Source of the DNA: a virus | Taxonomy: Duplodnaviria; Heunggongvirae; Uroviricota; Caudoviricetes | Reading direction: 5' to 3' (one strand) | Length of the DNA: 37,588 nucleotides | IMG/VR virus record: IMGVR_UViG_2563366827_000004 | Coordinates: 1-37,588 of that record | Shown here: in pieces, positions 27,999 to 34,070 of the stretch | Layout: each line of letters begins with the position of its first letter | Position numbering within the stretch: the first letter of the stretch is position 1 | Notes under the pieces: generated by a model | The model's database searches: none | Seen by the model: the letters and a program-made list of their open reading frames with translations, nothing else | What the model was told of the DNA's origin: nothing | Made by a program: the position numbers and the translations under genes

Positions 27999-28715
27999 AT
28001 GGAAAATAAAAAATCACTGACGACAGAACAGCTGGAAGACGCTAAGCGGCTTAAGGCTTTGTATGAGTCAAAAAAGAAAGAATTGGGAATAACCCAATAC
28101 TCAATCGCTGATGAACTGGGTATCACCCAAGGAGCGGTAGGGCATTATCTTAATGGCAGAAATGCGCTAAACGTTGAGGTTGCATCTGGTTTTGCACGAT
28201 TGTTGCAAGTCTCAATTGCTGATTTTAGCCAGTCAATTGCTGCCAAGGTTGCAGAACAGGCAGAAAGCCTTAAGAGCGATGCCAACGTAAGGTATGCAGG
28301 GGAATACAGAGCAGGAAAGAGGTATCCGGTGTTAAGCAGTATCCAGGCTGGCTCGTGGTGTGAAGCATGCGAACCATACACCATTAAAGACATAGATGTT
28401 TGGCTTGAGTCTGACGCGCATATTCAAGGTAATGCGTTCTGGCTTAAAGTGGAAGGTGATTCAATGACGGCACCGGTTGGGTTAAGCATTCCAGAGGGAA
28501 CATTCGTTCTTTTCGATACCGGAAGGGAGGCGATCAACGGCAGCTTGGTCATAGCAAAACTTTCTGACTCTAACGAAGCAACATTCAAGAAGCTGATAAT
28601 CGACGGCGGAAATAAATACCTCAAGGGACTTAATCCTGCATGGCCTCTCGTGCCAATCAATGGAAACTGCAAGATTATAGGCGTTGCAATTGAGACAAAA
28701 CTCAGACTGGTTTGA
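27999..28715 (+). CDS. cI: CI repressor (lambda-CI-like, LexA-type autocleaving C-terminal domain)
   Basis: 238 aa; aligns with recalled lambda CI along its length (TQEQLEDA.RLKA.YE.KK.ELG...FWL.VEG.SMTAP...FTFKKLI.D) but the HTH recognition-helix region differs. Confidence 0.9.
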   Translation: MENKKSLTTEQLEDAKRLKALYESKKKELGITQYSIADELGITQGAVGHYLNGRNALNVEVASGFARLLQVSIADFSQSIAAKVAEQAESLKSDANVRYAGEYRAGKRYPVLSSIQAGSWCEACEPYTIKDIDVWLESDAHIQGNAFWLKVEGDSMTAPVGLSIPEGTFVLFDTGREAINGSLVIAKLSDSNEATFKKLIIDGGNKYLKGLNPAWPLVPINGNCKIIGVAIETKLRLV

Positions 28716-29469: not shown

Positions 29470-29769
29470 ATGACAGTAGTCATTACATATCTGGCTGACG
29501 ATAACGCCAGAAATCGCCGCAGAGCACGCAGACAGGCTCAACGTGAACAGGCGATGCAAGAACAGCGACTGGCGCGAAAAATTGCGCTAAAGCTCTCTGG
29601 TTGCGTCAGAGCGGATAAAGCAGCATCACTCGGAATCCTTCGCTGCAAGAAGGCAGATGAAGTCGAGAGTAAACAGAATCGTATTTACTACCGCAAGCCA
29701 CGCAGTGAAATGGGTGTGACTTGTGTTGGTCGCCAGAAAATGAAATTAGGCAGCAAACCACTTATTTGA
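29470..29769 (+). CDS. N: N-like antitermination protein
   Basis: 99 aa, first gene after pL/nutL, GGAGG RBS, N-terminal arginine-rich motif DNARNRRRARRQAQREQ. Confidence 0.7.
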   Translation: MTVVITYLADDNARNRRRARRQAQREQAMQEQRLARKIALKLSGCVRADKAASLGILRCKKADEVESKQNRIYYRKPRSEMGVTCVGRQKMKLGSKPLI

Positions 29770-29780
29770 GAGGAATTAAT

Positions 29781-30404
29781 ATGTCATCAATCCGCTTAAC
29801 TACGAGAATGAAAGAGGAAATCGCTCGTAACGCTTTAATTAAGTCTGGGGTTTTCACTGAACTTGAAGAAGTAACAAAGTTAAAGAACCAGCTTGCACTT
29901 GACGCCAGAGTTATTGCGTTTGGCGGTAAAAAGAAAACTGAGGAAGTGGATCGGTTATCATCCAAGTTAGCAGCTATAAGTGAAGAACTTGAGAAGATGG
30001 GATGTTCATTTTACTCATGCGATGTTCGTTCTGCTTCGATTTATCTGACTGTATCTGGAAGAAGGGTTGGCTGGCATTCATACGGAAAAGACGGCAACGG
30101 TGAAGATATATTGCTCCCCACCCCAGAAAAAGATAAATGCATGTTTGACGCAGAACACGAAATAACAAAAAGGTTTGATGAAATCTGCGCATTGCAACAA
30201 AAACTTGAAGCCAAGAAAAAGGATATCGAATCAAATGTATGGGCTGCTTTGAACTCAGTCACAACAGTTAAGCGACTTATTGAAGTTTGGCCTGAAAGCA
30301 AAGAATTGCTACCAAAAGAAGCAGATAAAGCAAGTACAGCACTTCCTGCTTTACGGGTAGAAGATTTGAATAAGATGATTGGACTTCCTTCCGAGGCCGC
30401 ATAG
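29781..30404 (+). CDS. Hypothetical 207-aa protein co-transcribed with N
   Basis: ATG at 29781 with GAGAGGAA RBS, 12 bp after the N stop; soluble, no recognised motif. Confidence 0.7.
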   Translation: MSSIRLTTRMKEEIARNALIKSGVFTELEEVTKLKNQLALDARVIAFGGKKKTEEVDRLSSKLAAISEELEKMGCSFYSCDVRSASIYLTVSGRRVGWHSYGKDGNGEDILLPTPEKDKCMFDAEHEITKRFDEICALQQKLEAKKKDIESNVWAALNSVTTVKRLIEVWPESKELLPKEADKASTALPALRVEDLNKMIGLPSEAA

Positions 30405-30419
30405 TCGGCCTTTATTTTT
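30394..30419 (+). terminator. Intrinsic terminator overlapping the stop of the 207-aa gene
   Basis: AGGCCG-CATAGT-CGGCCT followed by TTATTTTT. Confidence 0.6.
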
Positions 30420-30476: not shown

Positions 30477-30538
30477 GGAGCAATGTCGCTCGTAACTAAA
30501 CAGGAGCCGACTTGTTCTGATTATTGGAAATCTTCTTT

Positions 30539-30564
30539 GCCCTCCTATGTGAGGGCAATTTTTT
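30539..30564 (+). terminator. Second intrinsic terminator, immediately before the coiled-coil gene
   Basis: GCCCTC-CTATGT-GAGGGC followed by AATTTTTT, 12 bp before the GGAGG RBS. Confidence 0.55.
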
Positions 30565-30576
30565 GACGGAGGATAT

Positions 30577-31545
30577 ATGAGTGAAGTAACAGATTTAGTT
30601 GTTATTGAAAAAGCAAATGCAATGACTGTATTTCAGTCTGCCGACCAGATTGAAGAAATCCTTCAAAAGGTTGAACGTGAAGTTATGTCCTTTGTGCCTG
30701 ATATCACAACGGCAAAGGGCAGAAAGGAGATCGCTTCTCTGGCGTATAAAGTTGCGCAAACGAAAACATATCTCGATGGTCTTGGAAAAGACCTTGTTGC
30801 TGAACTGAAGGAAATTCCAAAGCTAATTGATGCCAACCGCAAGACAGTGCGTGATCGCCTTGATGAGCTGAAAGCCAAGGCACGCCAGCCTCTTACTGAT
30901 TATGAGGAGGAGCAGGCGCGGATTAAAGCCGAAGAAGAGGCTAAGGCAGCAGCTGAAGCTCTCGCAAAGCAAATTGAGTCTGACCATGAAATAGCGATTT
31001 TGATGGATCGCGAATTTGACCGCCAAAGAGAAGAGGCAAGACTCAAAGCGGAGCAGGAAAAGCGAGAGCATGAAGAACGCTTAAAAAGAGAAGCTGAAGA
31101 GAAAGCCAGAGCAGAAGCCGAAGCAAAGGCAAAAGCCGAAATTGAAGCAGCAGCAAGGCGAGAAGCAGAGGCTAAGGCCGCAGCGGAACGTGCAGAGCGT
31201 GAACGCATTGAAGCCGAGCAACGAGCACAGCGCGAAGCAAAAGAGGCAGCAGAACGGGCTGAAAGAGAAAAGCAGGCGGCAATTGAAGCAGAACGCCGAA
31301 AAGCACAGGAGGAGGCAGAACGAATCCGGCGCGAGGCTGAAGCAAAAGAGCAAGCCAGAATAGCAGAAGAAAAAAGAATCAAGGACGAAGAAGAGCGTAG
31401 AGCAAAGGATAAAGCTCACCGGAAAGAAGTAAATAACAAAATACTTGCTGACCTTATCAAGGTTGGCGCATCAGAAGATGTTGCTAAAAATATCATAACA
31501 GCCATCGTAAAAGGCGAAGTATTCGCAACAAAAATAACCTACTAA
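30577..31545 (+). CDS. Hypothetical protein with a long E/R/K/A-rich helical repeat region
   Basis: 322 aa; about 150 central residues are almost only E, A, R, K, Q; globular-looking N- and C-termini; GGAGG RBS. Confidence 0.7.
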   Translation: MSEVTDLVVIEKANAMTVFQSADQIEEILQKVEREVMSFVPDITTAKGRKEIASLAYKVAQTKTYLDGLGKDLVAELKEIPKLIDANRKTVRDRLDELKAKARQPLTDYEEEQARIKAEEEAKAAAEALAKQIESDHEIAILMDREFDRQREEARLKAEQEKREHEERLKREAEEKARAEAEAKAKAEIEAAARREAEAKAAAERAERERIEAEQRAQREAKEAAERAEREKQAAIEAERRKAQEEAERIRREAEAKEQARIAEEKRIKDEEERRAKDKAHRKEVNNKILADLIKVGASEDVAKNIITAIVKGEVFATKITY

Positions 31546-31569: not shown

Positions 31570-31701
31570 ATGATTTACGCAATCGCGGGAGGCGCTCGCA
31601 TGGGTGCCTTCCAACTAAATGAATCTTTACTTGAACGAATCACCCGTAAATTACGTGACGGATGGAAAAGAGTTGAGATCTTATTATGCGCAATGAAATA
31701 G
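31570..31701 (+). CDS. Possible small protein (43 aa)
   Basis: ATG 31570 after AAGGAA; below the track cutoff. Confidence 0.3.
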   Translation: MIYAIAGGARMGAFQLNESLLERITRKLRDGWKRVEILLCAMK

Positions 31702-31838
31702 CCATCAATCACCAGATGCTTCGTGCTGCACAGAACAAAGCAGTAATAGCCAGATTTATTGGTGATTCAAAAATGTGGCTTGAAGCAAATAAAGCGATGA
31801 AATCAGCTATCAACCTTCCGTGGTATCGCAGGAAATGA
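31686..31838 (+). CDS. Possible small protein (50 aa)
   Basis: Overlaps the previous ORF; stop overlaps the next start (ATGA). Confidence 0.3.
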   Translation: MRNEIAINHQMLRAAQNKAVIARFIGDSKMWLEANKAMKSAINLPWYRRK

Positions 31839-31993
31839 GTTTTACAGATAACTGGTCAGACGAAGAATTCATTCGTCAGATGAAAGATTTAATCGGTAAC
31901 GAAGGAGATATTCATGTCACTTGCAACCACAGTGAAGGAGAGCAAGTTACAGAGACGCATGTACACGCAGAAAGCTCTCTGGTATCGCCATAA
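31835..31993 (+). CDS. Possible small protein (52 aa)
   Basis: ATGA-coupled to the previous ORF; below the track cutoff. Confidence 0.3.
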   Translation: MSFTDNWSDEEFIRQMKDLIGNEGDIHVTCNHSEGEQVTETHVHAESSLVSP

Positions 31994-32092: not shown

Positions 32093-32800
32093 ATGGATTT
32101 GAACAAATTCGATGAGCCATTCAGCCCTGAAGATATCGAATGGCGAATACAGCAAAGCGGTAAAACACGCGATGGCAAGGTGTGGGCTATGGTGCTGGCT
32201 TATATCACGAACCGGGCAATCATGAAACGCCTGGACGATGTTTGCGGCAAAGCAGGATGGCGCAATGAATACCGCGATATTCCCAACAACGGCGGCGTTG
32301 AATGCGGCATATCAATAAAGATTGATTCCGAATGGGTAACCAAATGGGATGCTGCTGAAAACACGCAGGTAGAAGCCGTCAAAGGTGGTCGTTCAGGTGC
32401 AATGAAGCGTGCTGCCGTTCAGTGGGGAATCGGTCGGTATCTGTATAACCTTGAGGAAGGTTTCGCACAAACATCTCTCGATAAAAAGCAGGGGTGGCAC
32501 AGGGCAAAACTGAAGGATGGAACAGGATTTTACTGGCTCCCTCCATCGCTGCCGGGATGGGCAATCCCAGCATCAGATAACAAACCATCACCAGAAAATA
32601 CCAACCAGAAATCTCCATCGGTTGACTGCGAACAAATCCTGAAAGACTTCAGCGATTATGCGTCAACAGAAACTGACAAGAAAAAACTCATCGAGCGTTA
32701 TCAGCGTGACTGGCAATTAATGGCTGGCAACGAGGAGGCGCAGGCTAAATGCGTTCAGGTAATGAACATCAGAGTTAACGAACTAAAACAGGCGGCATAA
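32093..32800 (+). CDS. Single-strand annealing recombinase (Rad52/Erf-type SSAP)
   Basis: 235 aa; motif AMKRAAVQWGIGRYLYNLE is typical of Rad52-like phage annealases; the C-terminal ~50 aa resemble what I recall of the P22 Erf C-terminus (unverified). Confidence 0.7.
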   Translation: MDLNKFDEPFSPEDIEWRIQQSGKTRDGKVWAMVLAYITNRAIMKRLDDVCGKAGWRNEYRDIPNNGGVECGISIKIDSEWVTKWDAAENTQVEAVKGGRSGAMKRAAVQWGIGRYLYNLEEGFAQTSLDKKQGWHRAKLKDGTGFYWLPPSLPGWAIPASDNKPSPENTNQKSPSVDCEQILKDFSDYASTETDKKKLIERYQRDWQLMAGNEEAQAKCVQVMNIRVNELKQAA

Positions 32801-33283: not shown

Positions 33284-33763
33284 ATGAAAATCTGCTCAAG
33301 ATGCCATCAACAGAAGGAAGAAAAGGACTTTCAAATCAGAAGAGCATCCAGAGATGGATTAACTGCCGCTTGCCGGGCTTGCCTGGCTGAATACGACAAA
33401 GAGCGCGCGGGATTGCCACATCGAGTATCAGCAAGGAGAGAATATCAATCATCGGAACGCGGCAGAGAACGGTGTAACGCAGCCAAAAAGCGGTTCATTC
33501 AGAGCAACCCATGGAAAAGAAAAGCCCACATCATCGTGGGTAATTTTTTGCGCGACGGTAAGCTAATCCGACCACCACAATGTGAGTGCTGCGGATCAGA
33601 ATGTAAACCACAGGCGCACCACTGCGACTACAGCAAACCAACCGATGTGATGTGGCTCTGCAAGTCATGTCATGTCGAGTGGCACAAACATAACAAACCT
33701 ATCTACCCAGACGAGGAACCAGTAACTCTCCCCTTCCCTCGTCACGCTATTCACGCAATTTAA
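33284..33763 (+). CDS. HNH endonuclease-like zinc-binding protein
   Basis: 159 aa; N-terminal Cys pairs and C-terminal CECCGSE...AHHCDY...LCKSCHVEWH, an HNH-type motif. Confidence 0.6.
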   Translation: MKICSRCHQQKEEKDFQIRRASRDGLTAACRACLAEYDKERAGLPHRVSARREYQSSERGRERCNAAKKRFIQSNPWKRKAHIIVGNFLRDGKLIRPPQCECCGSECKPQAHHCDYSKPTDVMWLCKSCHVEWHKHNKPIYPDEEPVTLPFPRHAIHAI

Positions 33764-33776
33764 TCAGGAGAAAATC

Positions 33777-34070
33777 ATGCCAGCGCCTCTGTATGGTGCG
33801 GATGACGCGCGCCGCTGTTCCGGCAATTCCGTATCGGAGGTGCTGGATAAATTCAGAAAAAACTACGATCGAATAATGTCGCTACCGCAGGAAACGAAAG
33901 AGGAAAAGGAATTTCGCCATTGTATATGGCTTGCAGAGAAAGAAGAACGCGAGCGAATTTACCAGACATCAATCCGACCATTCCGCAAAGCCACATATAC
34001 CCACTTCCCTGAAATTGACCCGCGCCTGCGTAATTACCGCTCACGCTATGGCGCTATCAGTAATGACTGA
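33777..34070 (+). CDS. Hypothetical protein
   Basis: 97 aa; AGGAG RBS 6 nt upstream. Confidence 0.5.

Follow-up and report, generated by a model that had tools for sequence, protein, structure and literature searches.

A phage early-left protein with a long charged helix: a member of the phi80 Agt/Sf6 gp33/D3 Orf53 family encoded near single-strand annealing modules

The closest described relatives of the protein considered here are those of phages phi80, Sf6 and D3. Of these, the phi80 (Lula) protein Agt (Mog, PHI80_40) carries the GenBank label 'anti-toxin for Gam; Mog (modifier of Gam)', and the gene downstream of it, gamL, the label 'toxic without Mog' (both are known as annotation only), and no function has been described for Sf6 gp33 or for D3 Orf53, to which the Sf6 annotation of gene 33 refers. 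The DNA analyzed (the window) is the whole 37,588-nucleotide stretch of the IMG/VR record IMGVR_UViG_2563366827_000004 (Caudoviricetes), which is a P22-like (Lederbergvirus-type) prophage, kin of IME10, E212 and CUS-3. It contains a 322-codon coding sequence (CDS) of the same family at 30577..31545 (+ strand), with an ATG start and a GGAGG ribosome-binding site at 30568-30572, four bases 5′ of the ATG. The CDS is exactly where a previous sequence-only reading of the stretch had put it. We propose, with a probability of roughly 0.4, that its product is a rod-shaped, two-headed spacer or adaptor that serves the recombination/anti-nuclease module of the phage.

The family assignment is firm over the whole length of the protein. 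It matches phrog_1376 ('unknown function') with E 2e-110 over residues 1-322, while searches of Pfam and PADLOC with the same protein gave no match and NCBIfam gave only noise. The ends, which had been taken as unrecognised, are those of a full-length ortholog of phi80 Agt/Mog and Sf6 gp33/D3 Orf53. Sf6 gene 33 is in fact the same gene (98.2% nucleotide identity over 969/969 bp) in the same gene context. The phi80 protein is also 322 aa long, is 51% identical end to end (composition-adjusted E 1e-64) and has in common with the window protein the N-domain, a DHE motif, the ER/K helix and the C-terminal I-x-Y ending. Both genes belong to an early-left operon and precede recombination genes, although these are gamL-recT-exo, directly downstream, in phi80, and cIII-kil-small ORF-Rad52-like-SSB-...-abc2, with no Gam, in the window. 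When window positions 30577-31545 are compared with phi80 (L003, 4001-4969), the helix and C-module are more alike than the N-domain (residues 1-155 are about 40% identical), which suggests that a mosaic junction may lie inside the gene. D3 Orf53 has the N- and C-domains in common with the window protein, and its gene likewise precedes that of a single-strand annealing protein (SSAP); D3-type members carry an extra helical insert of about 80 aa after the N-domain.

The same gene occurs in mEp043/213/234, IME10, HK544, CUS-3, Sf101, HF4s and Stx1a phages, where it is annotated as hypothetical, 'TolA', 'cell envelope biogenesis protein' or 'antitoxin'. Relatives were found by tblastn in 157 of 50,697 phage records, with hosts that include Pseudomonas (58), Vibrio (20), Klebsiella, Erwinia, Shewanella, Acinetobacter, Aeromonas and Iodobacter. 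An N-domain profile run against 1.84 billion 50%-identity representatives gave 5,589 matches at E<=1e-3 and 4,837 at E<=1e-10, with the domain always at the N terminus of the matched protein; the exact sequence of the 322-aa protein was not found in a 15-billion-protein collection. The family thus amounts to about 5,600 clusters at 50% identity, and has neither a Pfam model nor a solved structure. As it also lacks a described function, it is not the well-characterised family that, according to the sequence-only reading, might have accounted for the N-domain and the protein as a whole. The gene itself is ordinary, being a 98%-identical copy of the long-sequenced, unstudied Sf6 gene 33 and carried by about one complete E. 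coli genome in ten. The interest lies in the family, which is large, follows a strict three-part plan, has been left without a Pfam model or structure, and has been misnamed TolA.

The evidence that carries the proposal is positional. The family gene lies in or beside an SSAP recombination module in 11 of 11 diverse phages. The order is agt-gamL-recT-exo in phi80, family gene-erf-exo in D3 and JBD44, family gene-recT-exo in Acinetobacter phi5013-M1, recE-recT-family gene-rdgC in Iodobacter phiPLPE, and erf-exo-x-family gene-rdgC in Shewanella ZP9. In Yersinia, Aeromonas and Edwardsiella phages the gene is followed by a few small open reading frames (ORFs) and then by exo/recT or erf; in Vibrio phage Seahorse there is, two genes upstream of it, a weak match to an AAA_24 ATPase that scores below Pfam's cutoff and may be Sak4-like; and Sf6 and HF4s are arranged as the window, with a Rad52-like or Erf recombinase. 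RdgC is a recombination-associated DNA-binding protein, and the rdgC genes that directly follow the family gene in phiPLPE (L087, 4564-5466) and ZP9 (L091, 4480-5382) encode full-length homologs (PF04381, E 1e-84 to 7e-92).

The same association was counted in the 74 viral contigs that continue for at least 3.5 kb downstream of the gene. By BLAST, 59 of them contained an Erf (30), Rad52-like (22) or RecT (7) gene, and the 7 representatives tested of the 15 unassigned loci had divergent ERF or AAA_24 (Sak4-type) genes in the same position. An SSAP gene is therefore present in at least 66 of the 74 viral contigs and in at least 77 of 85 loci overall, and no locus was shown to be without one. For comparison, about half of lambdoid (pro)phages (134 of 275) are without any SSAP, according to the figure of Bobay et al. 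2013 as quoted in PMC12315714. Allele and recombinase class do not go together. Among 57 loci with an N-domain at least 97% identical to that of the window protein, 28 have Erf, 21 Rad52-like and 4 RecT genes, and in one (L013) the gene tested was of the AAA_24 (Sak4) type; two more (L034 and L052) have, at the same place, ORFs as long as that AAA_24 gene.

In the window, the Rad52-like SSAP gene begins 1.5 kb downstream of the 322-aa CDS. The location directly upstream of the annealase/SSB pair given by the sequence-only reading has to be amended to near, not adjacent, because cIII, kil and a 57-aa ORF intervene. The next gene 3′ of the CDS encodes a 43-aa cIII homolog (31570..31701, +; phrog_550, E 5e-20), and is followed by kil (31686..31838, +; PF06301, E 1.7e-20), by the 57-aa ORF (31820-31993, +; phrog_2123, labelled 'recombinase'), by the gene of the Rad52/22-family SSAP (32093..32800, +; PF04098, E 2.6e-26) and by that of the phage SSB (32801..33274, +; PF00436, E 1.7e-38).

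The protein has a well supported three-part architecture, consisting of a helical N-domain of about 105 aa, a long ER/K helix and a C-module of about 40 aa ending in I-x-Y-COOH. The N-terminal helical domain (aa 1-105; 30577..30891, +), delimited with the AlphaFold2 model, the family alignment and profile searches, bears the signature PD.sT.KGR..IAS.A.KVA.sKTYLD..GK.L..E.K..PK.ID..RK..RD.LD.L....R.PL..WE.E. In this region K63, D85, P105 and E110 are invariant in 113 full-length family representatives, and all are present here; about 20 further positions are conserved in at least 90% of these representatives, and a conserved basic/acidic stripe with i+3/i+4/i+7 spacing runs along helix 46-102. 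The C-terminal module (aa 286-322; 31432..31542, +), with the pattern G-h-s-E-x-x-A-K...A-I-x-x-G...I-x-Y-COOH, comes just after a conserved H-R-K-x-[VI]-N at aa 281-286, and the pattern for the family is H-R-K-x-I-N...G-h-s-E-x-x-A-K...A-I-A-x-G-x-I-P-x-V-x-I-x-Y. The last residue is Y in 104 of the representatives and F in the other 9, and position -3 is Ile in 100 of the 113; the window protein terminates in KITY. The two ends were thus correctly noticed beforehand, and their sizes, then put at about 130 and 50 aa, come down to about 105 aa, with a break at P105, and 37-45 aa.

The part between the ends is a predicted ER/K-type single alpha-helix (SAH) segment rich in E, R, K, A and Q (aa 148-285, about 21 nm; 31018..31431, +; defined by composition and charge pairs), which lies within a single continuous helix predicted by AlphaFold2 (aa 106-295, about 28 nm; 30892..31461, +). 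The length of the ER/K stretch varies in the 113 representatives from less than 30 to 151 residues, with a median of 82, and is at least 30 in 107 of them. A short natural member (P0098, 197 aa), modelled from a 123-sequence alignment with a mean predicted local distance difference test score (pLDDT) of 92, shows the same layout, with helices 12-20, 22-37, 46-170 and 175-186 and an ordered non-helical tail. No transmembrane segment or signal peptide was found in the window protein (the maximum of Kyte–Doolittle hydropathy over 19 residues, KD(19), is 1.03 and falls in the C-module), so that a cytoplasmic location seems likely.

Gene, architecture, family membership and synteny are shown by the analysis, and the following proposal as to partners and mechanism is built on them. 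The long charged helix would hold the end domains about 20-28 nm apart; each end would bind a different partner, and the stiff helix would act as spacer or tether. ER/K single alpha-helices do serve as stiff spacers between domains in eukaryotic SAH proteins. Since near-identical alleles stand beside four recombinase classes (Erf, Rad52-like, RecT and Sak4-like) that have no or only a remote relationship to each other, the partners are probably not the recombinases. They could rather be elements common to all SSAP modules, such as DNA ends or SSB-coated single-stranded DNA, or a host end-processing enzyme (RecBCD/SbcCD) together with the phage inhibitors that target it, and the phi80 annotation, by analogy, points to such inhibitors. 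The protein might in this way tune recombination-dependent replication or buffer the toxicity of a phage anti-nuclease. The suggestion of the sequence-only reading that the protein could be a spacer or scaffold or an accessory recombination factor is thus retained as the best-supported one, by virtue of the synteny (11/11 phages and at least 66/74 contigs), with its mechanism inferred.

Several observations weigh against this proposal. Adjacency to the SSAP module may be due in part to conserved early-left gene order, since enterobacterial prophages keep the gene-cIII-kil block unchanged and exchange the SSAP module that follows it. The pairing of near-identical alleles with any class of SSAP speaks against a specific contact with the recombinase. 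The net charge of the N-domain is near neutral (median +1 across the family), so that DNA binding by this domain is not obvious and, as an argument from charge, was rejected. Shortened or split copies indicate that the gene is dispensable at least in prophages. Searches by sequence and fold for a functional analog gave none, the comparison of the N-domain profile with the PDB being also without a match; literature searches found nothing on this protein; and the 322-aa protein is absent from the components given in a 2025 survey of lambdoid Rec modules.

A wider reading, which must be considered doubtful, sees in the family a widespread part of proteobacterial phage recombination modules that has so far gone unrecognised, and of which DUF1351 proteins may be the Firmicutes counterpart. 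On this view the protein would act as an ER/K 'molecular ruler', 10-30 nm long, that couples two factors shared by every SSAP system, such as SSB-covered single-stranded DNA or a DNA end on one side and a host end- or branch-processing enzyme on the other, which would explain that one allele can work with Erf, Rad52-like, RecT or Sak4. If so, it would be a missing factor able to affect recombineering efficiency and phage mosaicism. If only the narrower proposal of a recombination/anti-nuclease accessory were true, the protein would be a candidate for a host-independent factor so far missing from phage recombination and recombineering, as well as for a rare case of an ER/K single-helix spacer in a prokaryotic virus. 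Large, misnamed, without a Pfam model and consistently linked to recombination modules, with SSAPs of every class, the family is worth experiments, which would cost little.

The positional evidence can also be seen in another way, as the gene could code for a host-takeover or anti-defence/decoy protein unrelated to recombination, placed in a conserved early-left slot (the lambda ea10 slot, just after the tL2 terminators), with the nearness of the SSAP gene as a by-product of operon order. This explanation is somewhat unlikely, though the most probable of the rivals to the proposal. It agrees with the constancy of gene-cIII-kil between two mosaic flanks, where Nmad5, an Sf6 gp34-like or a transmembrane protein is encoded upstream and any of the four SSAP classes downstream; with the typical accessory genes in the neighbouring slots (Nmad5, ral, a Lar-like protein, abc2); with the plausibility of elongated, charged helical proteins as mimics or decoys; and with the optional character of the gene, which occurs in 530 of 5,426 E. 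coli genomes and in the small fraction of phage records given above. However, the adjacency holds outside Enterobacteria under other gene orders, with the family gene sometimes abutting the SSAP gene and sometimes downstream of it, and the proportion of loci with an SSAP (at least 77/85) is to be compared with about 50% of lambdoid (pro)phages. In addition, PADLOC gave no match, and the phi80 annotation ties the ortholog to Gam.

Concerning the helix, its composition and charge pattern support the single alpha-helix dominated by E, A, R, K and Q that had been read from the sequence. Residues 148-285 consist to about 90% of Glu, Arg, Lys, Ala and Gln, with every 21-residue stretch at least 86% E/K/R/Q/A/D; for residues 161-285 the figures are 30% E, 26% A, 18% R, 12% K and 4% Q, with about 5% hydrophobic residues. 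Between residues 100 and 290 there are 61 opposite-charge i/i+4 pairs, against 28.9 +/- 4.2 in shuffled sequences (z = 7.6), and both orientations, E followed by K/R and K/R followed by E, are enriched about 2-fold; in the same shuffle comparison no excess was found at i+1, i+2, i+3 or i+5. No spectral peak of hydrophobic periodicity was found at 3.5 or 7 residues. Residues 148-285 have in common with SAH domains a content of more than 75% E/K/R, with Q/A also counted, over more than 30 residues, together with an i/i+4 excess, and AlphaFold2, run on the monomer, gives one unbroken helix over 106-295 with pLDDT 86-95 over most of it. A charge excess restricted to i/i+4 and the lack of hydrophobic periodicity are the signature of an ER/K single alpha-helix and not of a canonical coiled coil. 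Like the ER/K SAHs of myosin VI/X, caldesmon and drebrin, the helix of the window protein is rich in E/K/R and in i/i+4 salt bridges and has no hydrophobic seam. It differs from them in being Ala-rich (26%), Arg-rich, about 140-190 residues long and bacterial-viral, and it is known here from sequence and model.

It is unlikely that the central region is instead a dimeric or trimeric Ala-rich coiled coil, of the kind proposed for TolA domain II and plasmid KfrA-type proteins, in which case the protein would be a multivalent rod or a filament-former. The Ala content could make a small-residue seam, and Ala plus hydrophobic residues do give a weak periodicity peak at 3.67 residues. The AlphaFold2 models come from monomer runs only, and the conserved segments LVVIE, N-terminal, and I-x-Y, C-terminal, which the models show as non-helical, might associate with each other in trans. 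Against this stand the scarcity of hydrophobic residues without 3.5- or 7-residue periodicity, the very strong salt-bridge pattern, which is the hallmark of ER/K SAH domains, and the confidence of the monomer model in the absence of any partner (pLDDT 90-95). The helix is probably monomeric. Its sole hydrophobic patch is a subfamily motif, ESDHEIAILMDREFDRQ (aa 134-150; 30976..31026, +), of the form E-[SA]-D-H-E-[IM]-A-[IL]-L-M-[ND]-x-x-F-D-R. It is present in 13 of the 113 representatives, including Klebsiella/Enterobacter relatives, is absent from a 245-aa deletion variant described below, and is a candidate partner-binding or dimerisation site.

Coming back to the two-headed spacer proposed above, one of its possible functions, the buffering of an anti-nuclease, can be narrowed to that of a specific antitoxin or modulator of the phage anti-RecBCD protein, by generalising the Agt-GamL annotation of phi80 and taking Abc2 as the partner in the window. 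In phi80, gamL directly follows agt, whose product is annotated as the anti-toxin of GamL. In most enterobacterial loci with the gene, abc2 is 2.5-3.8 kb downstream, and in the window an Abc2 anti-RecBCD homolog is encoded at 33777..34070 (+; phrog_656, E 7.7e-55). Such a role is nonetheless quite unlikely. Three loci with close alleles and a RecT-type module (L008, L009 and L036) gave no Abc2 or GamL match, no annotated anti-RecBCD gene lies beside the family gene in D3, JBD44 or the Acinetobacter, Aeromonas, Shewanella and Iodobacter phages, and Gam and Abc2 are unrelated proteins, which makes one conserved binding head for both improbable.

That the protein is a TolA-like component of the cell envelope, as the names 'cell envelope biogenesis protein TolA' or 'TolA protein' in RefSeq, GenBank and PHROG-based annotations would have it, is next to impossible, since the BLASTP match to E. 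coli TolA (E = 0.25) covers 60 columns inside the charged helix only, the C-terminal domain PF06519 found in E. coli TolA (E 2e-38) is missing from the window protein, and a transmembrane anchor is lacking. At the level of sequence, the common label is refuted as a compositional artefact that has its source in the long Ala/Glu/Lys-rich helix shared with TolA domain II, and at the very least these annotations should be corrected.

Other phage groups have proteins in a comparable position. Small non-enzymatic products of Rec-module genes that aid recombination or protect DNA ends, namely P22 Arf and Abc1 and the Mu Gam-like and Sipho_Gp157 proteins encoded upstream of erf/sak4, are positional analogs; no sequence kinship with them was found. 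In Firmicutes phages, Mu-Gam-like, DUF2483, Sipho_Gp157 or DUF1351 genes fill the slot just before erf/sak4/recT, and Steczkiewicz and colleagues took this to mean that their functions are analogous (PMC8093625). The DUF1351 proteins (PF07083) of Firmicutes phages resemble the Agt/gp33 family in size (about 300 aa), in their all-helical N-terminal half, in the order of motifs of the N-domain and in their slot, which is immediately upstream of Sak4, Erf or RecT plus SSB (in Oenococcus phi9805 the order is DUF1351-Sak4-SSB). They have neither the ER/K helix nor the I-x-Y end. The family, including an alignment of the D3-type subfamily, was compared by hhalign with two DUF1351 alignments, which gave probabilities of 0.4-8% and E values of 0.001-0.14 with a constant register (sKTYLD..GK against sRAdL.K...), the DUF1351 alignment being thin (effective number of sequences, Neff, about 3.4). 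PF07083 did not match the window protein or the 113 representatives (E<=0.01), nor 10 diverse members at E<=10. DUF1351 is thus a positional analog, and its homology to the Agt/gp33 family is unproven.

As for the C-module, its profile retrieved from the PDB the LATS2 UBA domain (E 0.25) and RuvA domain III (E 0.35-0.5), and 5 of 74 members match RuvA_C with a best E of 0.011; all these values, which would point to UBA-like or HhH folds, are below significance and, though suggestive for a protein near recombination genes, give a lead and not evidence. The identification of the C-module with P22 Arf was rejected, because the only Phage_Arf (PF17585) match was that of JBD44 gp65, with E = 0.6, and the P22 Arf sequence is unlike the module.

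The DNA of the low-complexity region (30900-31420) is 72% purine and uses mainly the codons GAA, GCA, GAG and AAA, a composition that gives rise to long antisense ORFs. Two such ORFs, of 160 and 112 aa, exist; neither matched any PHROG family, and both can be disregarded as spurious, as had been anticipated. On the other hand, the short repeats also reported for this DNA turned out to be compositional low complexity. A true tandem repeat was rejected after Tandem Repeats Finder gave only two marginal arrays (scores 46 and 37) and a repeat search gave only short, imperfect direct repeats. One of the latter is the 27-nt sequence GAAGAAGAGGCTAAGGCAGCAGCTGAA (30931..30957, +), which encodes EEEAKAAAE and recurs, 89% identical, at 31162..31188 (+), 231 nt or 77 codons away. 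A natural 245-aa variant (about 20 clusters; P0016 by itself occurs on 14 contigs) lacks residues ~126-202 and is otherwise identical to the window protein; its loss of 77 codons exactly fits a deletion between these direct repeats.

Helix length is therefore changed by deletion or drift in low-complexity DNA and not by the number of repeat units. In contrast with the copy-number variation expected among related prophages, 55 of 80 close relatives in viral contigs are exactly 322 aa long, more distant ones are 311-341 aa, several are shortened, and those of Klebsiella/Enterobacter range from 166 to 257 aa. The nonsynonymous/synonymous variants counted in 54 distinct 322-aa alleles (N-domain 26/60, C-module 13/19, ER/K segment 100/88) fit what may be constrained heads joined by a spacer constrained mainly in composition. 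An origin of the repetitive region as an assembly artefact, a possibility raised by the sequence-only reading, was discarded, because the 969-bp gene recurs with 98-99% identity in 35 phage genomes, and 496 of 5,426 complete E. coli genomes contain it at a coverage of 80% or more.

Upstream of the gene there are, all on the + strand, a cI-type repressor gene (27999-28715), the gene of a 122-aa protein of no known function between it and N, the N gene itself (29470-29769) and, just before the 322-aa CDS, the gene of an Nmad5-domain protein (29721-30404; PF18757, E 8e-71). The 170-bp gap that precedes the CDS contains two terminator-like hairpins (+). One of them (30393..30412), just after the Nmad5 gene, has a 7-pair stem with 5 GC pairs and a T-run tail, TATTTTTGGC. 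The other (30537-30558), TTGCCCTCC...GAGGGCAA followed by TTTTTT, ends 9 nt 5′ of the ribosome-binding site and matches in position tL2A of Sf6, an annotated terminator (4960-4988 of L001) immediately before gene 33. With these hairpins in front of it, expression of the 322-aa gene and the recombination module should depend on N antitermination, and the gene is probably a delayed-early, N-dependent member of the early-left operon. The slot upstream of the gene is mosaic in related prophages, being occupied by Nmad5, by an Sf6 gp34-like protein or by a protein with a transmembrane helix. Point mutants of Nmad5 let Dhillonvirus phages escape the Tmn defence system (PMC11846954).

Downstream, the 57-aa ORF has a 'SDEEFI' motif in common with P22 Arf (FSDEEFIALIS) and gave no Pfam Phage_Arf match; it may encode an Arf-like recombination cofactor, to judge from this motif. 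Five viral contigs (L058-L062) have a reading frame that, from the start codon of the family gene, stops after codon 19, and in three of them the distance to kil is also shorter by about 14 nt. Several phage records (Louie, Huey, CurroJimenez_Bas106, phiv205-1 and CUS-3) annotate the gene as two ORFs. The gene is thus sometimes inactivated or mis-called, which is consistent with its dispensability in prophages. Between SSB and abc2, the window encodes a 159-aa Cys-rich, Zn-finger/endonuclease-like protein (33284-33763, +; phrog_2340 'endonuclease'), with weak Lar-like and endonuclease VII-like matches, and its gene is present in only 7 of the 74 viral contigs, among otherwise near-identical prophage loci.

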